A DNA stretch of 64,000 nt from Escherichia coli (GTDB taxonomy: Bacteria > Pseudomonadota > Gammaproteobacteria > Enterobacterales > Enterobacteriaceae): the NCBI RefSeq assembly GCF_044324785.1, contig NZ_CP172127.1; one strand, written 5' to 3'. Every line of letters begins with the position of its first letter. Position 1 is the first letter of the stretch. The notes under the pieces were generated by a model. The model made no database searches. It was not told the origin of the DNA and worked only from the letters and a program-made list of their open reading frames with translations. Positions 9,487 to 20,182 of the stretch are shown piece after piece. The position numbers and the translations under genes are program-made.

Positions 9487-11832
9487 ATGTCATCAACTAA
9501 TTTCAGCCAGATTGCAGCCTTCCTGTGGTCTGTCGCCGACCTGTTACGCGGCGATTTTAAACAATCACAATATGGACGAATTATTCTTCCTTTTACCCTT
9601 TTGCGTCGTCTGGAATGCGTACTCGAAACAACGAAAGACGCGGTCATTACCGAGGCGCAAAAAGTAAAAGCCATGAAACTGCCGGAGGAAGCCCAGGAGA
9701 AAATGATCCTGCGGGCGACTAATGGCCTCACGTTCTTCAATGCCTCAGCGATGGATCTCAGCAAAATGGGGCAAAATGGCATACAGGACAACCTGGAAAA
9801 CTACATCCAGTCGTTCTCTTCGGATGCCCGCGAAATTTTCGAACACTTCAAGTTCAGCGAGTTTGTCGGACAGCTGGCGGATGCAAACTTACTGTTCAAA
9901 GTGGTGCAAATATTCGCTAAAGCAGATTTATACCCGGAGCACGTCACCAACCACGATATGGGGCTGGTATTTGAGGAGCTGATCCGACGTTTTGCCGAGA
10001 GTTCTAACGAAACCGCCGGGGAGCACTTTACCCCGCGTGATATCGTCAATCTGACCACCTCGCTGGTGTTTTTCGATGATGATGATGCACTCAATAAAGA
10101 CGGCATCATCCGCACCATTTACGACCCAACAGCAGGAACCGGCGGCTTTCTCTCTTCCGGCATGGAGTACGTCCACAAACAAAACCCCAATGCCGTGATG
10201 CGCGCGTTTGGTCAGGAGTTAAACCCGGAATCCTACGCCATCTGCAAAGCCGACATGCTGATTAAGGGCCAGGACGTCAGCCTTATCAAACTCGGCAACA
10301 CCCTTTCCAACGATCAACTCCCCGCAGAAAAATTCGATTACATGCTCTCTAACCCACCTTTCGGCGTGGACTGGAAAAAGATCGAATGCGACATCAACGA
10401 CGAGCACAAACTCCAAGGTGCTGATGGCCGCTTTGGCCCCGGCCTGCCCCGCGTCTCCGACGGTTCGTTGCTGTTTCTGCTGCACCTGATCAGCAAAATG
10501 CGCGATGCCAAAAGCGGTGGTGGGCGGATCGGCATCATTCTTAATGGCTCTCCGTTATTCACCGGCGGCGCGGGCAGCGGTGAAAGCGAGATCCGCCGCT
10601 ACATTCTGGAAGCGGATTTGCTGGAAGGCATTATCGCCCTGCCCACCGACATGTTTTACAACACCGGTATCGCTACCTATGTGTGGATTTTGTCGAATAA
10701 AAAAGCGCCTGAGCGCAAGGGCAAAGTCCAGCTTATCGACGCTAGCAACCTGTGCGGCAAGATGCGTAAATCGCTGGGGTCAAAACGCAATATTCTCGGG
10801 GAGGAGGATATTGGTTTAATCACCCGCACGTTTGGCGATTTCGAACCCGTTGCCACCACTACGCTTGCGGCGTTAGGCCTGGAGAAAGCACCCGAACAAA
10901 AATCCAGCCGGGGACGCCAGCCCGCAACAACCAAAACCGAGGCGGCAAAAACTTTTGCCAGCAAAGTCTTTCACAGCACCGAGTTTGGCTATCGTCGCAT
11001 CACCGTTGAGCGCCCGTTGCGCCTGTCGGCTCAGATAAGTGATGACGCCATTGCCACATTGCGCTTTGCGCCGAAGCCGTTTATCGCTCCGATGGCGCAA
11101 CTGTATGACGCCTTTGCTTTCCAGTGGCAGGACGGTCATTACGGCGACTTAACAGCGGTAGAAAGTGAAGCCCGCGCCATTCTTAAAGCCGATTTTAGCG
11201 AGCTGAAAGAGAAGCAAATTAAAGATCTGCTCAACAGCAAATTATGGCTGGCCCAGCGCGGGTTAATGGAAAAAGCGCGGCGTATTCAGGCGGCGATGGG
11301 TATGCAGGCGGGCGGCAAAGACACCGTTAGCAATGACTTTAATCAGTTCCAGTTGACGCTGAAAGAGGCGTTCAAAACCGCAGGCGTGAAGCTGGATGCG
11401 AAAGAGAACAAGCAGTTTATTGATGCCATTACCTGCAAAAACCCGGATGCCGAACCAGTTATCAGCAAGGTACTGAAAGAAGCAGCCCAACCGTTGTACG
11501 GCGCGTTTGAGTACCACGGAAAGGTTGTGGAGTTTGAGCCGGATGGCGACCTGCGTGATAACGAGAATGTGCCGTTAAATCCGGCGGTATCTACCAGCGA
11601 GTTGATCGAGGGTTACTTCAAAGCAGAAGTATTGCCGCACGTCGCGGATGCGTGGATTAACGCCGATAAGCGCGATGCGAAAGATGGGGATATCGGGATT
11701 GTGGGGTATGAAATTCCGTTTAATCGCCATTTTTATGTTTATCAACCGCCAAGGCCGCTGGAGGAGATTGATGCGGATCTGGATGCGGTAAGTGCTGAAA
11801 TTATGAAACTGTTGCAGGAGGTACATTCCTGA
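9487..11832 (+). CDS. hsdM: Type I restriction-modification DNA methyltransferase subunit HsdM (N6-adenine, NPPF motif) with long C-terminal extension
   Basis: 781 aa from ATG 9487 (AAGGA upstream); AdoMet motif [10 protein letters not shown] and catalytic [11 protein letters not shown]; about 230 extra C-terminal residues compared with HsdM sizes I recall; stop overlaps hsdS start (TGATG). Confidence 0.85.
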
Positions 11833-13115
11833 TGGCTACATACAAAAACTATCAACAAACCAATTTGTTAGGATTAGAAATACTTCCATCTCATTGGGAA
11901 GTAAAAAAAATTAAGCATCTATTTTCAATTGGTCGAGGTAGAGTCATATCTCAAGCGGAATTAGAAGATGAAGGTATGTATCCAGTATACTCATCGCAAA
12001 CACATAATGATGGATGCTTAGGTTATATTAATAGCTATGACTTCAATTGTGAGCAAATTACATGGACTACGGATGGTGCAAATGCTGGAACTGTTTTTCT
12101 TCGGAAAGGCAAATATAACTGCACAAATGTATGTGGAACATTACAACCAATAAATAAAGAAAACTTTTTACAATTTCATTTATATTGCTTGCAGTACATC
12201 AATCAATTTCATAAGCGCCCTGATACTAATGGGGCGAAGATAATGAATAATGAGATGGCCGAAGTATATATTCCACTACCTTCTAACCAAGAGCAATTAC
12301 GAATCACCACCTTCCTCGACCACGAAACCGCAAAAATCGATAACCTAATCGAGAAACAACAACAATTTATTGAACTATTGAAAGAAAAACGTCAGGCCGT
12401 GATTAGCCATGCGGTGACAAAAGGGCTAAATCCTGACGTGCCGATGAAAGATTCTGGAGTTGAGTGGTTGGGAGAAATGCCTGAACATTGGCATTTTACT
12501 CGAGCTAAATTTGTTTCAAACATATTTGTTCCGCAACGAAATAAGCCAGAGTTAAATGATGACATTGGTATTTTTTGGATAACAATGGAAAACATGAGTC
12601 AACCATATATAACATCTTCCTTTCAATATGTTTCTGACGTTGCAGCACTAAAATCAGGCTCAAAGATATTACCAAAAGGAGCCGTAATAGCCAGCTGCGT
12701 TGGTAATTTTGGAATTGCTGCAATCAATGAGGTCGATGTTATTATCAATCAACAATTGCAAGCATTTCAGACCTTAAGTATAAAGGCCGATTTTCTCATG
12801 GCTTTAGTTTCTATTTCTAAAAAGTATTTTGAAATCATTGGCACCGCTGCAACCCTTGCATATGTAAATAAAGAAGGTTTTGAAAATCTTCCTGTTGTTA
12901 TTCCATCGGAAAATGAACAAATTAATATTTGTAAATACATTAGAGATAAAAATAAAAAGTTTGAAATATTGATTGAGCGTTCCATGCACCAAATTGAGTT
13001 ACTCCAGGAACGCCGCACCGCCCTTATCTCCGCCGCCGTCACCGGCAAAATAGATCTCCGCAACTGGACCGCCCCCATCGCCAAAACGGAAGCACCCACG
13101 GAGGCCAGCGCATGA
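11832..13115 (+). CDS. hsdS: Type I restriction-modification specificity subunit HsdS
   Basis: 427 aa; two AT-rich variable regions (putative target-recognition domains) separated by a GC-richer central conserved block (LRITTFLDHETAKIDNLIEKQQQFIELLKEKRQAVISHAV) and a C-terminal conserved block (LLQERRTALISAAVTGKIDL); start/stop coupled to hsdM and hsdR. Confidence 0.8.
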   Translation: MATYKNYQQTNLLGLEILPSHWEVKKIKHLFSIGRGRVISQAELEDEGMYPVYSSQTHNDGCLGYINSYDFNCEQITWTTDGANAGTVFLRKGKYNCTNVCGTLQPINKENFLQFHLYCLQYINQFHKRPDTNGAKIMNNEMAEVYIPLPSNQEQLRITTFLDHETAKIDNLIEKQQQFIELLKEKRQAVISHAVTKGLNPDVPMKDSGVEWLGEMPEHWHFTRAKFVSNIFVPQRNKPELNDDIGIFWITMENMSQPYITSSFQYVSDVAALKSGSKILPKGAVIASCVGNFGIAAINEVDVIINQQLQAFQTLSIKADFLMALVSISKKYFEIIGTAATLAYVNKEGFENLPVVIPSENEQINICKYIRDKNKKFEILIERSMHQIELLQERRTALISAAVTGKIDLRNWTAPIAKTEAPTEASA

Positions 13116-16100
13116 ACAACGACATTACAAAAGAGCTCAACCTGCAAAACGACATCATCGCCCAGATGGTGGAAAAAGGCTGGATTGTCGGCAAAGGTGA
13201 CGGCTACGACCGGGAACGTGCGCTATACGCACAAGACGTTCTGCACTTTGTGCAAACCACCCAACCGCAAGAGTGGGAGAAATTCGCCCGCGTTTACCCC
13301 AACGACAACGAACGCCATTTCCTCGACGCGCTGGTTGCGCAGTTAAAAAAAGCCGACAGCAACGCCACCGACATCCAGTCGCGCACCTGGGGTACGCTCG
13401 GCGTACTTCGCCACGGACTGAAAATCCGCAATGCCCGTTTTTCGCTGTGTCAGTTTAAACCGGAACATAATCTCAACCCGGAAACGCTGGCGCGCTATCA
13501 GCAAAATATCTGCCGTATCGTGCCGGAACTGGTCTACAGCCCGTATGCCTCAAATAGCGTCTTTGCAGAAACGGGCGTGAAAGCCAAAAAATGGCGTATC
13601 GATCTGGTGCTGTTTATCAACGGCCTGCCGATTGCCACGCTGGAGCTGAAATCCGAATTTAAACAGGCGGTGCAGAACGCCATTGCCCAGTACAAAAAGA
13701 CCCGCCTGCCGAAGGATCCCGCGACCAATAAACCCGAACCGCTGCTGACCTTTAAGCGCGGCGCGCTGGTGCATTTTGCCGTCAGCCAGTATGACGTCTT
13801 TATGACCACCAAACTCGCGGGTGACAGCACCTTCTTCCTGCCGTTTAACAAAGGCACCAAAGACGGCGGCGCAGGCAACGAGATCCCCGAAGATACCCAC
13901 CGCTACGCCACAGATTATCTGTGGAATGAAGTGCTGCTGCCGGACAACTTATTAAAAATCCTCGCCAGTTTTGTCCATTTGCATATTGAAGAAAAAGAGG
14001 AGTGGAACGGGCTGAAAGCGAAGAAAGAGAGCCTGATTTTCCCGCGTTATCATCAGTGGGATGTGGTCAACAAACTGCTGGAGGCCGCGACGATTGAAGG
14101 AACCGGCCATAAATACCTGATCCAGCACAGCGCCGGTTCCGGTAAATCGAACTCCATTGCCTGGACCGCCCACCAGCTTTCTCGTCTGTACGACGTGAAC
14201 GGGGAAAAACAGTTCCACTCCATTATCGTGGTGACGGACCGCACGGTGCTGGACGACCAGCTTCAGGACACCATCTGGCAGTTCGAACATGCCGACGGCG
14301 TGGTCGGGCGCATCAATAACAGAGAGGGCGACGGCTCTAAATCGGAAAAGCTCGCCAACGCGCTGGAAAACTCGCAGCCGATAATCATCGTCACCATCCA
14401 GACATTCCCGTTCGTGCTGAAAGCCATCGAAAACAGCGTCAGCCTGAAGCAGCGTAAATACGCGGTGATTGCCGACGAAGCACACTCCTCGCAGAGCGGT
14501 TCTACCGCCCGTCAGCTTAAAGAAGTGCTGATGAGCGAAGAAATGGATGATGACTTGGTACTGTCGTCAGAAGATATCCTGGATGCGACCATTGCCGCCC
14601 GGAAAGGCAGCAGTAACCTGAACTACTACGCCTTTACCGCCACGCCAAAATCCAAAACCCTCGAACTTTTTGGTCGCCGTCCACGTCCCGATGAACCGGC
14701 GTCAAAAACCAATAAACCTGAGGCCTTCCACGTCTACTCCATGCGCCAGGCAATCGAAGAAGGCTTTATCCTCGATGTGCTGAAAAACTACACCAACTAC
14801 AAAGTGGCGTATCAGTTGCTGCAAAAGCTGGTAGACAAGGACCGCGAAGTCGACAGCAAGAAGGCAAAGATAAAGCTCAACCTGTGGGTGACACTGCACG
14901 ACCACAATATTTCGCAGAAGGTGAAGGTGATTGTGGAGCACTTCCGCAAACATGTGATGCATCTGCTTGGTGGCCAGGCCAAAGCGATGGTGGTCACCAG
15001 TTCGCGTAAAGCCGCCGTGCGCTATAAGCTGGCATTTGATAAATACATTAGCGAGAACAATTACCAGAAAATCAGCGCGATGGTGGCGTTTTCCGGGGAA
15101 GTTGAATTCCGGGAAGGCGACCATAACAGCCTGGCATTGTTAAACCAGAAATTTACTGAAATAAACATGAACCCCGGCCTAAAAGGGCGGGATATGCGCA
15201 AAGCCTTCGACAGCGATGATTATCAGGTCATGCTGGTTGCCAATAAATTCCAGACCGGTTTTGACCAGCCGAAGCTGTGCGCGATGTACGTGGATAAAGC
15301 CCTCGGCGGCGTCGAGTGCGTGCAGACGCTCTCCCGCCTGAACCGCACCTATCCGGGCAAAGCGGAATCAGGCACTTTTGTCCTCGATTTTTATAACGAT
15401 CCGGGCGAGATCCTCGGCGCATTCCAGCCCTATTTCCAGACGGCGGAACTGACCGATGTCAGCGATCCGCAGCAGGTATTCGATCTGTTTGAAAAACTGC
15501 GCGCCACGCAGATTTTTCAGTGGCATGAAGTCGAGCAGTTCTGCGAGGCGTACTTCATCAAAAATAAATCGAATGCGGCGATCAGTAATATCTGTAAACC
15601 GGCGGTCGAACGCTGGAAAAAGCGTTATCTGATGGCAATAGACGCCTATTTGACCGCCAAAGAGATGTTCGAGCGCACTAAAAAAACGGGCGATACGGTG
15701 TTAATAACCAATGCGGAAAACAGTTTTAAAGCCTGTAAGCAGGAGAAAGATCGTCTGGAGATTTTCAAGAAAGATCTCGGCAGCTTTGTTCGCTTTTATG
15801 AGTTTATGTCGCAAATCGTTGAGTACGATGACAAGGATCTGGAAAAGCTAAGCCTGTTTGCGCGCCATTTACGCCCACTGCTGCATGAGCAACGTCTGGA
15901 AGAGGATGAAATTGATCTCAGTAATGTGGAGATGAGTCACTATCGTTTATCGAAAATCCATGAGCAAGATTTACGCTTACAGGAAGAAACGTCTGACTAT
16001 ACGCTGGATGCAAGTAATGATATTGGTACGGCAAAAGCGAAAGATAAAAAAGAGGAGTTTTTATCGCAGGTGCTTTCTCGGATGAATGAATTATTCATTA

Positions 16101-16375
16101 GCGACCATTTGACCGACAAAGATATGATCAGCAATGCTTTTGCGGTGTATAACAAAATAACTGAAAATGAAAATGTTATGACACAAATTAAAAACAATCC
16201 GCCAGAACAAGCGATTCTTGGTGACTTCCTCCAGGCAGTTGATAATGCTGTAATGGACAGTAATGACGCTCGGCAAGAATTTATGTTGCAATATTTATCC
16301 GATCCAGCTCGGGCAAAGGGCTTTGCTTATCTGATGTTTGATATGCTAACGGGGAAAATTGCTTTGCCAACATAA
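13112..16375 (+). CDS. hsdR: Type I restriction endonuclease subunit HsdR (helicase-nuclease)
   Basis: 1087 aa; helicase motif I (HSAGSGKSNSIAW) and DEAH box (VIADEAHSSQSG); ATG overlaps hsdS stop (ATGA). Confidence 0.85.
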   Translation: MNNDITKELNLQNDIIAQMVEKGWIVGKGDGYDRERALYAQDVLHFVQTTQPQEWEKFARVYPNDNERHFLDALVAQLKKADSNATDIQSRTWGTLGVLRHGLKIRNARFSLCQFKPEHNLNPETLARYQQNICRIVPELVYSPYASNSVFAETGVKAKKWRIDLVLFINGLPIATLELKSEFKQAVQNAIAQYKKTRLPKDPATNKPEPLLTFKRGALVHFAVSQYDVFMTTKLAGDSTFFLPFNKGTKDGGAGNEIPEDTHRYATDYLWNEVLLPDNLLKILASFVHLHIEEKEEWNGLKAKKESLIFPRYHQWDVVNKLLEAATIEGTGHKYLIQHSAGSGKSNSIAWTAHQLSRLYDVNGEKQFHSIIVVTDRTVLDDQLQDTIWQFEHADGVVGRINNREGDGSKSEKLANALENSQPIIIVTIQTFPFVLKAIENSVSLKQRKYAVIADEAHSSQSGSTARQLKEVLMSEEMDDDLVLSSEDILDATIAARKGSSNLNYYAFTATPKSKTLELFGRRPRPDEPASKTNKPEAFHVYSMRQAIEEGFILDVLKNYTNYKVAYQLLQKLVDKDREVDSKKAKIKLNLWVTLHDHNISQKVKVIVEHFRKHVMHLLGGQAKAMVVTSSRKAAVRYKLAFDKYISENNYQKISAMVAFSGEVEFREGDHNSLALLNQKFTEINMNPGLKGRDMRKAFDSDDYQVMLVANKFQTGFDQPKLCAMYVDKALGGVECVQTLSRLNRTYPGKAESGTFVLDFYNDPGEILGAFQPYFQTAELTDVSDPQQVFDLFEKLRATQIFQWHEVEQFCEAYFIKNKSNAAISNICKPAVERWKKRYLMAIDAYLTAKEMFERTKKTGDTVLITNAENSFKACKQEKDRLEIFKKDLGSFVRFYEFMSQIVEYDDKDLEKLSLFARHLRPLLHEQRLEEDEIDLSNVEMSHYRLSKIHEQDLRLQEETSDYTLDASNDIGTAKAKDKKEEFLSQVLSRMNELFISDHLTDKDMISNAFAVYNKITENENVMTQIKNNPPEQAILGDFLQAVDNAVMDSNDARQEFMLQYLSDPARAKGFAYLMFDMLTGKIALPT

Positions 16376-16440
16376 AAATACGTTAATAGCCGGGGTCGTA
16401 CTTTCTACCCCGGCCATATTATTTACAATAAGGAATAGCT

Positions 16441-17154
16441 ATGCTGAAGATGATTAAAGATTTTAAATTCAAAAAATACATTAAAAAATTACGTGAAGAA
16501 GGTTTGTTATTTTATGTTTCTTTCGGGTTTATATTTACATTGTTAATGGAAGTTGATGATCGATTACCGTACTATCTTCAACAAGACTTCTTTTTTGATA
16601 CACTTATAGGATTTATGCCAATCAATATATTCTTTGTTTTGATTTGCACATATATATTTTTCAATGCCGTCCATGCGCTTATTTCACCCTATAAATTTCA
16701 AAGAATTGGTGAGAAATTCCTCTCTGAACTTGATAAAAGAACACAACAAATTGGCTTTATTATTTCATTCATATGTTTTGGCATGACTTTGTTTTGTGCA
16801 CTGGTGTGGTTGCTGTTTTTTGAGATGAATACTGAAAGTTACTACGCAAAATATACATTAATTTTTTTGGCTGTTTTTATCATTATGATTATGTTTTCTT
16901 CAGCAGTTAATCCAGTAATGAACAGAATATCACAAAAAATTAAGGAATCGGACTCACATGGAAATTCAAAAATAATTCTTATAATTATAATCATTACATT
17001 ATCGCTATTATTACCAATTGCGTGCATTATCAATAAAAATAAAACAATTGAAATCAATATCAAGAAAGAAACTTATCAGCAAATAAAAGAAAAAACAAAA
17101 ATGAAACCAGAGGATTATATCAAAAAATTGATTACTGATATTAAATTCAACTAA
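16441..17154 (+). CDS. Hypothetical AT-rich integral membrane protein (about 5 predicted TM segments) downstream of hsdR
   Basis: 237-aa ORF with AAGGA Shine-Dalgarno; very AT-rich by eye; hydrophobic stretches FYVSFGFIFTLLM, INIFFVLICTYIFF, IGFIISFICFGMTLFCALVWLLFF, LIFLAVFIIMIMF, IILIIIIITLSLLLPIACII; no recognisable family. Confidence 0.5.
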   Translation: MLKMIKDFKFKKYIKKLREEGLLFYVSFGFIFTLLMEVDDRLPYYLQQDFFFDTLIGFMPINIFFVLICTYIFFNAVHALISPYKFQRIGEKFLSELDKRTQQIGFIISFICFGMTLFCALVWLLFFEMNTESYYAKYTLIFLAVFIIMIMFSSAVNPVMNRISQKIKESDSHGNSKIILIIIIITLSLLLPIACIINKNKTIEINIKKETYQQIKEKTKMKPEDYIKKLITDIKFN

Positions 17155-17158
17155 TATC

Positions 17159-17192
17159 TATATGTACCCTGGTTTCTTCCAGGGTACATATA
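17159..17192. terminator. Perfect 14-bp-stem hairpin between convergent membrane-protein gene and yjiS (candidate bidirectional terminator)
   Basis: TATATGTACCCTGG tttctt CCAGGGTACATATA. Confidence 0.4.
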
Positions 17193-17229
17193 AAAAGTTA
17201 ATATCCTGATTTATTCTCAACATCCTCTA

Positions 17230-17394
17230 TCACTCCACATCCTCCCTGCGTAACCCAATATCCCTCAACCGCTCATCACTCATCTGCTGTAACACCCGCC
17301 GGGCCTGCATTTGCCGCCGCCAACGCCTCACTGCCTGCCAGAGTTGCACAAGTCCAATAAACGGTGCTTTAGCTTTGTTTTCGTGAAATTCCAT
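17230..17394 (-). CDS. yjiS: DUF1127 small protein YjiS
   Basis: Minus-strand 54-aa ORF MEFHENKAKAPFIGLVQLWQAVRRWRRQMQARRVLQQMSDERLRDIGLRREDVE; below the 60-aa ORF-track cut-off; matches YjiS as recalled. Confidence 0.75.
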   Translation of the reverse strand: MEFHENKAKAPFIGLVQLWQAVRRWRRQMQARRVLQQMSDERLRDIGLRREDVE

Positions 17395-17570
17395 CTGCTG
17401 CCTCCTCATCTTTCAGAGGCTTCATCATCCGCCTTCTGGCAGTTCACAATACAGATGCAAATATTAGTTTTATTTAACATACAGACAGGTTAAAACAGCA
17501 TCTGCATCCGGTTTTTTAGCCTCATCTGTACCGGTTTTTCTTTCTGTATGGTCCAAATAAGGAATACAGC

Positions 17571-18983
17571 ATGACGCGTTATCAACATCTGGCAACTCTG
17601 CTTGCCGAGCGGATTGAGCAAGGGCTGTATCGTCACGGGGAGAAATTGCCGTCGGTGCGCAGCTTAAGTCAGGAGCACGGCGTCAGCATCAGCACCGTGC
17701 AGCAGGCGTATCAGACGCTGGAGACGATGAAGCTCATCACCCCACAGCCGCGTTCGGGTTATTTTGTCGCACAACGTAAAGCCCAGCCGCCAGTACCGCC
17801 GATGACGCGTCCGGTGCAGCGCCCGGTGGAAATTACCCAGTGGGATCAGGTGCTGGATATGCTGGAGGCGCATAGCGACAGTTCCATTGTTCCGTTAAGC
17901 AAAAGCACGCCGGATGTCGAAACGCCCAGCCTGAAACCGCTCTGGCGGGAGCTAAGCCGGGTGGTACAGCATAATCTGCAAACCGTTCTCGGTTATGACT
18001 TGCTAGCCGGTCAGCGAGTGTTGCGAGAGCAGATTGCCCGCCTGATGCTCGACAGCGGCTCGGTGGTCACCGCCGATGACATCATCATTACCAGCGGCTG
18101 CCATAACTCGATGTCTCTGGCGTTAATGGCGGTGTGTAAACCGGGCGATATTGTCGCGGTCGAATCCCCCTGTTATTACGGTTCGATGCAGATGCTGCGC
18201 GGCATGGGCGTGAAAGTGATTGAAATCCCCACCGATCCAGAAACAGGCATCAGCGTTGAAGCGCTGGAACTGGCGCTGGAACAGTGGCCGATTAAAGGCA
18301 TCATTCTGGTGCCAAACTGTAATAATCCGCTGGGATTTATTATGCCGGACGCGCGCAAACGGGCCGTTCTCTCTCTCGCTCAGCGTCATGATATTGTGAT
18401 TTTTGAAGATGATGTCTACGGCGAACTGGCAACGGAGTATCCGCGCCCGCGGACCATTCATTCCTGGGATATCGACGGGCGAGTGCTGTTGTGCAGCTCG
18501 TTCAGTAAAAGTATTGCTCCAGGCCTGCGCGTGGGTTGGGTCGCACCGGGGCGTTATCACGATAAACTGATGCATATGAAATACGCCATCAGCAGCTTTA
18601 ATGTGCCGTCCACGCAAATGGCGGCGGCAACGTTTGTGCTGGAAGGTCACTATCATCGCCATATCCGGCGGATGCGGCAGATCTATCAGCGCAATTTGGC
18701 GCTTTATACCTGCTGGATACGGGAATATTTTCCCTGCGAAATCTGTATTACGCGCCCGAAAGGCGGATTTTTACTGTGGATCGAATTGCCTGAACAGGTC
18801 GATATGGTCTGCGTCGCGCGGCAGCTGTACCGCATGAAAATCCAGGTGGCGGCAGGCTCGATTTTCTCGGCTTCCGGTAAATACCGTAATTGTCTGCGCA
18901 TCAACTGCGCTTTGCCGCTCAGCGAAACCTATCGCGAAGCACTGAAGCAAATTGGCGAAGCCGTGTATCGGGCAATGGAATGA
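17571..18983 (+). CDS. yjiR: MocR/GabR-family regulator (GntR-type HTH fused to aminotransferase-like PLP domain)
   Basis: 470 aa; N-terminal HTH (LPSVRSLSQEHGVSISTVQQAYQTLE) followed by aminotransferase fold-type I region. Confidence 0.85.
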   Translation: MTRYQHLATLLAERIEQGLYRHGEKLPSVRSLSQEHGVSISTVQQAYQTLETMKLITPQPRSGYFVAQRKAQPPVPPMTRPVQRPVEITQWDQVLDMLEAHSDSSIVPLSKSTPDVETPSLKPLWRELSRVVQHNLQTVLGYDLLAGQRVLREQIARLMLDSGSVVTADDIIITSGCHNSMSLALMAVCKPGDIVAVESPCYYGSMQMLRGMGVKVIEIPTDPETGISVEALELALEQWPIKGIILVPNCNNPLGFIMPDARKRAVLSLAQRHDIVIFEDDVYGELATEYPRPRTIHSWDIDGRVLLCSSFSKSIAPGLRVGWVAPGRYHDKLMHMKYAISSFNVPSTQMAAATFVLEGHYHRHIRRMRQIYQRNLALYTCWIREYFPCEICITRPKGGFLLWIELPEQVDMVCVARQLYRMKIQVAAGSIFSASGKYRNCLRINCALPLSETYREALKQIGEAVYRAME

Positions 18984-19225: not shown

Positions 19226-20182
19226 TTAGTACTCGATCCATGGATCGCGCTTGCTTTCAGGCAAGGGCTGCTCTAATGCCTGCATTTGCTCTGCCGAAAG
19301 TCCGGTATATCGTTGTATCCATTCAGGATCCGCCCCATTCTGCAACAACAATCGGAGGAGGCTCCGTTCCCCTTCTACTTTCCCTTCTTTCCTCCCCCTC
19401 TCCCTTCCCAACAGCCATCCATCATTATGAATTCGCTCTGCAATCGTCATTATTCGCTCCCTTTGTTGTGGCATTCGACTGGTTAGTTCGCTGATAAACT
19501 CTTTAAAACGCGCTTCATCGCCAGTCAGTAAAATGTAATTTAACAGCGCAGTTATCTGGCTGTCATTAGCACACTCTGTAACCAGTAATATTACCAGTTG
19601 ATCGATAAGCCCCATCAGATCGCGCTGGCGAATATGCTTTTGGATCAACTCCAACAGGGCGACTCTGCGGTGCTGCACAATCTCGTCGTCTGGCACGACA
19701 GTGACATCCACCAGCGGGAACGCTGCAGTATAAAGCTTCCGTGCAGTAGTCGGGTCGGCAAATTCGTCCAGCCAGCACAGGGACCAGGGATAAGGACTAC
19801 GGCTACCGTGATAAAACAGCATCGGGATGACCAGCGGTAGCGGCCGGCGTTTATCATGTTCGATATGGCGCTGCATCACCGCCATGGAATATCGCATCAG
19901 GCGAAAGGCCATATGGATATCCTCGCGGCTCTGATGTTCAATCACTACGTAAATATAACCATCACCTTCACGGGTCTTTACCGACCACAGAATATCGGAG
20001 TGTAGCGCCCGCAATTTTTCATCGACGAAGCTGGCGGATTCCAGTTTTAAGCTGTCGAGATCGCACAATTCACGTAAATCTATTGGTAAGTGGATCTCCA
20101 TAAAATCCCGCGCGGTGTCAGGGTGGGTGAGAAAGGATTTAAATAATGCGTCATGCGGCGTACTGGTCGTGAAGTTTGTCAT
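19226..20182 (-). CDS. rpnD: Rpn-family (YhgA-like) PD-(D/E)xK recombination-promoting nuclease, apparently intact
   Basis: 318-aa uninterrupted [36 protein letters not shown]... typical of the Rpn/YhgA family; position matches the K-12 yjiP/yjiQ locus. Confidence 0.75.

Follow-up and report, generated by a model that had tools for sequence, protein, structure and literature searches.

A candidate membrane-tethered ribbon-helix-helix protein encoded at the edge of the immigration control region of Escherichia coli

The subject of this report is a 237-codon open reading frame (ORF) with an ATG start, called at 16441..17154 on the + strand of a 64,000-nucleotide stretch of Escherichia coli DNA (contig NZ_CP172127.1, assembly GCF_044324785.1; hereafter the window). 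It lies between hsdR, the last gene of a type I restriction-modification (R-M) operon, and yjiS, at the edge of the immigration control region (ICR). Examination of its sequence, homologues and predicted structure leads us to propose, as a tentative reading to which we assign a probability of roughly 0.45, that it encodes a membrane-tethered ribbon-helix-helix (RHH) protein that would dimerize through its C-terminal tail, bind either DNA or a partner of RHH type on the inner side of the membrane and be a resident of the ICR edge. The ORF is a genuine, fast-evolving gene under purifying selection, and in this E. coli haplotype it merely happens to lie behind hsdR.

A conserved C-terminal tail that models as a ribbon-helix-helix dimer

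A Kyte-Doolittle analysis of the ORF product reveals five hydrophobic segments (Table 1) between a lysine-rich N-terminus and a highly charged C-terminal tail, and the hydropathy profile of the STM4522-like family, an uncurated family that is defined here by homology, indicates that all five are kept across its members. Family alignments show that the tail is the most conserved part of the protein. Between genera, where synonymous sites are saturated, nonsynonymous divergence amounts to 0.20-0.30 in the tail versus 0.40-0.49 in the body, and between the window and Escherichia fergusonii the tail has accumulated five synonymous and no nonsynonymous changes. Furthermore, a stretch of 17 residues within it, YQQIKEKTKMKPEDYIK, is identical in a homologue with 43% identity to the ORF protein, where it is encoded by different codons. 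The tail follows the pattern of the RHH fold, in that an alternating hydrophobic strand (TIEINI) leads into two helices separated by a short turn, and in a full-length AlphaFold model built on a 7-sequence alignment (predicted local distance difference test score, pLDDT, 47.8) it is the only region to reach 66-78. A tandem construct, in which two tails are joined by a glycine-serine linker, was modelled with a 13-sequence alignment and assumes the strand-helix-helix arrangement twice, with a pLDDT of 75 overall and 81-90 outside the linker and a predicted template modelling score of 0.65; that is, the tandem tail is modelled as an RHH dimer. In structure it most closely matches TraY, AvtR and single-chain Arc, and its top matches in BFVD include annotated RHH proteins, at probabilities of 0.95-0.99.

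Profile comparisons of individual family members point the same way for two homologues. The tail of P0033 matches RHH_7 and NikA-like, and that of P0035, from Vibrio, comes close to NikA-like (21 bits, with 27 required) and RHH_1 (18.4 versus 20.5), with RHH_7 and FitA-like also just below threshold. Nine further tails yielded a single match to the RHH profiles, RHH_3 at E 0.11 in one of them. By sequence, where a profile match above the gathering score marks membership, the ORF product does not fall within the RHH superfamily, and our confidence in the assignment, which derives from models and sub-threshold matches, is modest.

The topology bears directly on what such a tail could do. The N-terminus is basic (8 lysine or arginine residues) and is therefore placed inside, while the tail carries 10 such residues. 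The lysine plus arginine balance under the positive-inside rule is 19:8 with both termini inside versus 16:11 for a plain arrangement of five transmembrane (TM) segments, and we favour a cytoplasmic tail on this reading of the sequence.

Several observations weigh against the proposal. An internal N-terminus followed by five spanning segments would deliver the tail to the periplasm, where ordinary DNA binding is implausible, and to have both termini inside requires either that segment 1 does not span the membrane or that segment 2, a long stretch, forms a hairpin. Among the tails of the window protein and of the members from Escherichia, Salmonella and Pseudocitrobacter there is no match to an RHH profile. 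Searches of PDB sequences with the full-family and tail profiles were not significant (HP0222, E 0.16), nor was a Foldseek search of PDB with the tandem model (best E 0.59). The tandem construct itself was designed without a control, and the full-length model, given its pLDDT, is unreliable and unfit for fold searches. Finally, literature searches with STM4522 and the locus tags of its neighbours returned nothing on STM4522.

With these points taken into account, the preferred reading may be spelled out as follows. The lysine- and arginine-rich N-terminus would probably be cytoplasmic and the five hydrophobic segments would anchor the protein; two tails would pair into an RHH dimer, whose ligand at the cytoplasmic face would be DNA or an RHH-type partner. 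Transcription would reach the gene most likely by read-through of the weak hairpin after hsdR, and expression would be low, probably through H-NS silencing, as the AT-richness of the gene suggests. A membrane-bound regulator, sensor or DNA tether is in our view more likely than a pore-forming suicide effector.

A genuine gene under relaxed purifying selection

The preliminary description of this DNA, made from the sequence alone, had placed a 237-residue multi-pass membrane protein on the same strand as hsdR and 65 bp after it, in very AT-rich DNA between a type I R-M operon and a perfect 14-bp-stem hairpin preceding yjiS. All of this is borne out: by the ORF call; by a hsdR stop codon ending at 16375, which leaves a gap of 65 bp; by a G+C content of 26.8% in the ORF (27.7% at third codon positions) versus 47.8% across the window; by the five hydrophobic segments in both the Kyte-Doolittle and the family profiles; by a stem paired at 14 of 14 positions; and, for the neighbours, by Pfam and RefSeq annotation.

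The probability that 237 codons of the composition of the ORF would run without a stop is 6.7e-10. The reading frame is open in each of seven alleles (the window, four E. coli genomes, one E. fergusonii contig and one metagenome contig), among which the Shine-Dalgarno and start region shows no variation. The pairwise ratio of nonsynonymous to synonymous divergence (dN/dS) is 0.20-0.49, well under 1 in all 21 pairs and 3-5 times that of the hsd genes (0.04-0.13 for hsdR and hsdM). Synonymous divergence (dS) across the same alleles is comparable in the ORF (0.04-0.24) and in hsdR (0.13-0.27). Similar dS values together with dN/dS below 1 indicate, therefore, that the ORF has been inherited together with the hsd genes and that selection on it is purifying but relaxed. 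Database copies are mostly full length, with 237-residue clusters of 624 and 172 members, and many E. coli and Salmonella entries are marked partial because contigs break inside the AT-rich gene. Frameshifted forms of 199 and 226 residues exist in some lineages. Many Salmonella copies are truncated or frameshifted; a 163-residue form lacking the N-terminal third is found in subsp. diarizonae, and frameshifts occur in runs of A or T.

It could be argued that the ORF is a functionless leftover of horizontally acquired AT-rich DNA, silenced and hitch-hiking with its haplotype. Its G+C content of 26.8%, prevalence of 2% in E. coli, lack of a curated family and elevated dN/dS relative to the hsd genes would agree with this, as would the truncated and frameshifted copies (163, 199 and 226 residues). 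We nevertheless regard it as distinctly unlikely, because dN/dS stays below 1 in every pair, the frame has remained open between haplotypes whose dS reaches 0.24 and between genera whose proteins are 31-43% identical, with synonymous sites saturated, the tail is strongly constrained and the Shine-Dalgarno and start sequences are invariant.

The STM4522-like family

Searches of Pfam, NCBIfam and PHROGs with the ORF protein gave only sub-threshold matches over hydrophobic stretches, the matches to curated families were mutually inconsistent across 12 family members, and PADLOC-DB v2 contains no family matching the protein at E<=10. The earlier statement that the protein has no recognisable family thus holds for curated libraries, but uncharacterized homologues exist. 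A phmmer search against 1.8 billion representatives recovered 13 matches at E<=1e-3, spanning residues about 8-237, and a tblastn match in a Salmonella Infantis contig that had been misfiled in a phage collection led to STM4522 of Salmonella enterica LT2. The ORF protein belongs with STM4522 by its full-length similarity to the Salmonella, Pseudocitrobacter and distant members, and it displays the architecture common to them: the N-terminus is basic, the first of the five hydrophobic segments is followed by an L-P-aromatic motif, and a charged tail of ~40 residues has a strand-helix-helix arrangement. Residues L42, Y44, L46, Q47, Q48, F51, F52 and T54 are invariant in the 13-sequence alignment.

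STM4522, annotated as 'putative inner membrane protein' or 'hypothetical protein', is a full-length homologue with 37% identity (tblastn E 3e-28; profile E about 1e-95 to 1e-103). Like the ORF protein it has five hydrophobic segments and the motif LPYYLQQxIFFET, and the two tails have the pattern I-x-I-x-K-x-x-Y-x-x-I-x-x-K-T-K-x-K-P-E-x-Y-I in common. Its gene is likewise low in G+C (28.6%) and lies at the ICR edge in the same orientation, convergent with yjiS. It differs in its length of 233 residues, in the unrelated intergenic DNA and in its upstream neighbours, which are symE followed by hsdR-hsdM-hsdS and mrr rather than the hsdM-hsdS-hsdR and GmrSD genes of the window. The sizes of its clusters, 1398 and 772 members, point to near-universal presence in S. 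enterica, whereas the ORF is present in 2% of complete E. coli genomes.

A homologue with 31% identity occurs in Pseudocitrobacter faecalis after hsdR-hsdM-hsdS-symE. It is directly convergent, across a 54-bp gap, with an aldehyde dehydrogenase gene that in Salmonella comes after yjiS; no yjiS is called between the two (locus L014, 10001-12096). The family is therefore not dependent on an adjacent yjiS. A functional link between the ORF and YjiS, a membrane-associated small protein (PMC11707872), was considered and set aside, since yjiS is present in E. coli lacking the ORF and the Pseudocitrobacter homologue has no yjiS beside it. The homologue with 43% identity, on a 999-bp contig (L006), is flanked by the C-terminus of the same aldehyde dehydrogenase, and its source probably keeps the ICR-edge position too.

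More distant members, with 21-27% identity and the same architecture, are found in Enterobacter wuhouensis, E. bugandensis, Pantoea agglomerans, Alishewanella, Rheinheimera and Vibrio parahaemolyticus. Those of Enterobacter and Pantoea lie between an AI-2E transporter gene and mmuP/mmuM. In Enterobacter (L015, 1385-2484; L021, 7645-8744) the homologue overlaps by 4-28 nt the end of a gene of the glutathione-dependent formaldehyde-activating-like (GFA) family, which suggests translational coupling of the two; the GFA gene is absent in Pantoea. The V. parahaemolyticus homologue, P0035, is located in a variable island (L017-L020, about 1400-6000 and 8001-8684) together with genes for a VspR-like protein, a helix-turn-helix (HTH) protein with an ImmA/IrrE peptidase, and Multi_ubiq/ThiF/BubE. 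Multi_ubiq, ThiF and BubE make up a ubiquitin-like defence module, and the homologue is followed by genes for a 5'-nucleotidase and an HD-domain protein. No partner gene is conserved among the homologue loci. By tblastn, plasmids held no homologue and the phage collection none apart from the misfiled Salmonella chromosomal contig, and a scan of viral contigs found none; a scan of genome contigs with the closer alignment, using narrow search patterns, recovered two loci.

Some RefSeq copies carry a different label: the Prokaryotic Genome Annotation Pipeline calls the protein a major facilitator superfamily (MFS) transporter in NZ_CP133923.1, NZ_AP046545.1 and NZ_AP046539.1, and a 'hypothetical protein' in most genomes. 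The match to MFS_1 is 14.5 bits (E 0.017) where 33.4 are needed, and the protein has five segments rather than the 12 of an MFS transporter, so the name was rejected and looks like an annotation error. That the protein is a small transporter or channel, as weak matches to MscS_TM and Cation_ATPase_C besides MFS_1 might hint, is in our estimation highly improbable, in that all these matches are far under their gathering scores and inconsistent among members, and it is the soluble tail that is conserved rather than the membrane core.

A probable resident of the ICR edge rather than an accessory of the type I system

Among 5426 complete E. coli genomes, the ORF is present in 114 and so is the 3' half of this hsdR allele. 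At every sampled carrier locus the order is GmrSD, hsdM, hsdS, hsdR, ORF and yjiS, and blastn in 'distant' mode uncovered no degraded copies in other E. coli haplotypes beyond the 114. According to the literature the ICR, which yjiS and yjiA delimit, is a replaceable cassette (PMC2481252, citing Sibley and Raleigh) and a hotspot for restriction and defence genes (PMC2481252). Homology to the 3625 other genomes with a match on the yjiS side starts at window position 17230, exactly at the yjiS stop codon, which is thus a base-precise boundary of the variable ICR. The ORF and its hairpin fall on the variable side of this break, and the co-occurrence in E. coli is therefore uninformative with regard to function; the 114:114 correspondence is that of one haplotype block.

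The cassette and the ORF part company outside this haplotype. Related hsdM-hsdS-hsdR cassettes (HsdR 70-77% identical, HsdM of ~770 residues) are carried by plasmids of Vibrio campbellii, Acinetobacter baumannii and Shewanella xiamenensis, and in all three hsdR is followed by something other than the ORF: a DUF4433 gene with a macro-domain gene, McrBC-like genes, or a phytanoyl-CoA dioxygenase gene. The slots concerned are L027 9247-10936, L028 9345-13210 and L029 9335-10210, and the pair of DUF4433 and macro-domain genes is DarTG-like. Variable cargo seems to dock at the position after hsdR. The homologues, for their part, keep other company. That of Salmonella sits between symE and yjiS, downstream of mrr-hsdR-hsdM-hsdS, and no R-M genes were found within 8 kb of the Enterobacter, Pantoea or Vibrio homologues.

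These comparisons bear on the possibility that the ORF encodes an accessory effector of the adjacent type I system, co-expressed with HsdR and backing up restriction by abortive infection or exclusion. That it shares a strand with hsdR, begins 65 bp beyond it and lacks a promoter-like site would suit such a role, and so would the perfect co-occurrence in E. coli, the defence genes (DarTG-like and McrBC-like) in the post-hsdR slot of related cassettes and the occurrence of the Salmonella and Pseudocitrobacter homologues downstream of a type I system. However, the co-occurrence amounts to one haplotype block, three of three related cassettes lack the ORF, its homologues are associated with an unrelated type I family and symE or with no R-M system at all, nothing in PADLOC matches it and a G+C-rich hairpin separates it from hsdR. 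We therefore consider this role improbable. The functional coupling to the type I system implied by the preliminary description is not supported, given the haplotype block, the three plasmid cassettes without the ORF and the homologues beside other or no R-M systems; the check it had suggested, co-occurrence with this hsd allele, succeeds in E. coli (114 = 114) and fails across genera. Neither is the ORF present wherever the cassette occurs, nor do its homologues always accompany this kind of cassette. Sequence comparison instead indicates that the ORF is a single-gene unit tied to a chromosomal position in three enterobacterial genera and not an accessory of hsdM-hsdS-hsdR. Its position and orientation at the ICR edge are kept in Escherichia, Salmonella and Pseudocitrobacter, and yet 98% of E. 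coli genomes lack it and the homology break leaves it in the variable DNA.

Independently of any R-M system, the protein might act as a stand-alone exclusion or abortive-infection protein of defence islands, either through a basic periplasmic tail directed against incoming DNA or through depolarization of the membrane. The ICR is a hotspot of the appropriate kind (PMC2481252), the V. parahaemolyticus homologue shares its island with VspR-like, ImmA/IrrE plus HTH and Multi_ubiq/ThiF/BubE genes, the gene is AT-rich, patchy and fast-evolving, and a plain five-TM topology would place the tail outside. A weak match to SieB (PF14163) was also noted, in homologue P0031 alone of the 12 members (19.1 bits with a cut-off of 26, E 0.001); the ORF protein has none, and SieB was rejected as a family assignment. 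Set against this, the three enterobacterial ICR cases represent one orthologous locus and hence one observation, the Enterobacter and Pantoea homologues reside among housekeeping genes (the AI-2E transporter gene, mmuP and mmuM), phages, viral contigs and plasmids hold no homologue, PADLOC has no match and the SieB match is sub-threshold in one of 12 members. Such a role is unlikely, if still worth keeping in view, and defence readings as a whole rest on two independent contexts (the ICR and the Vibrio island) versus one housekeeping context; the idea of a defence effector is weakened. A related idea would retain the RHH tail and have a single gene guard the envelope, with the tail binding nucleic acid at the membrane and either blocking its entry or triggering membrane failure; a periplasmic tail could target phage or plasmid DNA on its way in, a cytoplasmic one DNA that has just entered. 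Although we see this as something of a long shot, it would, if true, explain the persistence of the gene in restriction and defence hotspots of Escherichia, Salmonella, Pseudocitrobacter and Vibrio.

Hairpins and the transcription of the ORF

The ORF is bracketed by two predicted hairpins. The one within the 65-bp gap is a feature that the preliminary description had not mentioned. A 70-nt fold of this region has a free energy of -20.3 kcal/mol (z = -2.7), and the hairpin is kept in six of seven alleles and is weaker in E. fergusonii. It looks like a terminator or attenuator, and as an attenuator it may set the share of hsdR transcription that reaches the ORF. The start codon of the ORF lies within a second small predicted stem. 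A promoter scan of the + strand from 16000 to 17700 found no sigma-70-like promoter. In Salmonella an unrelated hairpin occupies the equivalent spot after symE (L009, about 11905-11931). The hairpin between the convergent ORF and yjiS has a free energy of -23.4 kcal/mol (z = -7.3 versus shuffled sequences), falls within haplotype-specific DNA and is probably a bidirectional terminator. Neither hairpin displays compensatory changes; the variants break or weaken pairs and provide no evidence of covariation.

Features of the locus and its neighbours

Table 1. Features of the ORF and neighbouring genes in the window; residue ranges of the hydrophobic segments are approximate.
Feature	Position	Strand	Remarks
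hsdM	9487-11832	+	type I R-M operon
hsdS	11832-13115	+	type I R-M operon
hsdR	13112..16375	+	last gene of the hsdM-hsdS-hsdR operon; Pfam HSDR_N, ResIII, SWI2_SNF2, T1R_D3-like; RefSeq annotation in strain N3
G+C-rich hairpin in hsdR-ORF gap	16386-16396/16407-16417	+	core GCCGGGGT/ACCCCGGC at 16389-16396/16407-16414; A/T-rich run after it
Shine-Dalgarno AAGGAA	16430-16435	+	5 nt upstream of the ORF ATG; read from the sequence; invariant in 7 alleles
ORF	16441..17154	+	237-residue inner-membrane protein, STM4522 family; ORF call, dN/dS, homologues
Hydrophobic segment 1 (aa 20-38)	16498..16554	+	weakest of the five, Kyte-Doolittle 1.61; flanked by acidic residues
Motif LPYYLQQxxFFxT (aa 42-54)	16564..16602	+	conserved; between segments 1 and 2
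Hydrophobic segment 2 (aa 63-81)	16627..16683	+	Kyte-Doolittle, family profile
Hydrophobic segment 3 (aa 104-122)	16750..16806	+	preceded by conserved L-x-E-L-x-K-R motif (aa 94-100)
Hydrophobic segment 4 (aa 138-156)	16852..16908	+	preceded by invariant Y135
Hydrophobic segment 5 (aa 178-196)	16972..17028	+	Kyte-Doolittle 3.19
C-terminal tail (aa 198-237, NKNKTIEINIKKETYQQIKEKTKMKPEDYIKKLITDIKFN)	17032..17151	+	most conserved part; ribbon-helix-helix-like
Hairpin between convergent ORF and yjiS	17159-17192	.	arms 17159-17172/17179-17192; 14-nt stem, 100% complementary; 6-nt loop
yjiS (DUF1127)	17230-17394	-	Pfam DUF1127

Across the ORF region the window and E. coli N3 are 100% identical. On the far side of hsdM-hsdS-hsdR (+) lies the GmrSD gene (-), at 7103-9202, which is intact in the window (699 residues) and split by an IS4 insertion in N3 (L001, 1290-4827). 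The window must accordingly stem from a relative of N3, or a version of it, that is free of this IS4. HsdM has 781 residues, of which HsdM_N and N6_Mtase of Pfam span 9-455 only, the C-terminal ~325 residues being without a family; the M subunits of the plasmid relatives of the cassette are likewise long (2277-2322 bp). Near the ICR edge there is also a gene of the Rpn family (recombination-promoting nuclease / Transposase_31) at 19226-20182 (-), which is truncated or split in some haplotypes.

Significance and comparison with known systems

If the preferred reading, a membrane-tethered protein with an RHH tail, is true, the ORF would represent an undescribed architecture, in which an RHH module is fused to a polytopic membrane anchor; a literature search for membrane-anchored RHH proteins gave nothing pertinent. 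It would also offer a first functional handle on STM4522, which is present in most S. enterica genomes, has never been studied and adjoins yjiS, the gene of a small protein implicated in Salmonella virulence. For the mining of defence islands the locus holds a caution, in that perfect co-occurrence within a species can be pure haplotype linkage; here a separate comparison of cassette and candidate gene across genera removed the apparent association.

With respect to location, the ORF is comparable to the accessory genes of R-M loci. PrrC is an anticodon nuclease encoded in the EcoprrI type I R-M locus. Its gene and the DarTG-like and McrBC-like genes occupy, like the ORF, the slot directly downstream of the hsd genes on the same strand. 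Unlike the ORF, which follows its cassette only in the E. coli haplotype, they travel with the R-M cassette or are regulated by it. With respect to size and membrane character, RexB of lambda, SieB of P22 and lambda, and Imm of T4 are similarly small polytopic inner-membrane proteins encoded among defence genes. The ORF protein, however, has no homology to them, is not borne by a phage or prophage and has no conserved partner gene.

Within the RHH superfamily (Arc/MetJ/CopG), the nearest comparators of the tail, as judged from the model, would be the single-chain double-RHH proteins TraY and AvtR and the engineered single-chain Arc. Members of this superfamily have a G-x-S/T/N turn, in place of which the ORF tail has K-x-K-P, and the classical ones are small and soluble, whereas the RHH-like part of the ORF product forms the C-terminus of a polytopic membrane protein. 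ToxR and CadC combine an N-terminal winged-helix domain with a single TM helix and a periplasmic sensor domain. The ORF protein has no sequence relationship to them and differs in its five hydrophobic segments, in the lack of a sizeable periplasmic domain and in the C-terminal placement of its RHH-like module. The likeness to ToxR and CadC would thus be one of concept only, namely that one polypeptide unites a DNA-binding module with an inner-membrane tether.

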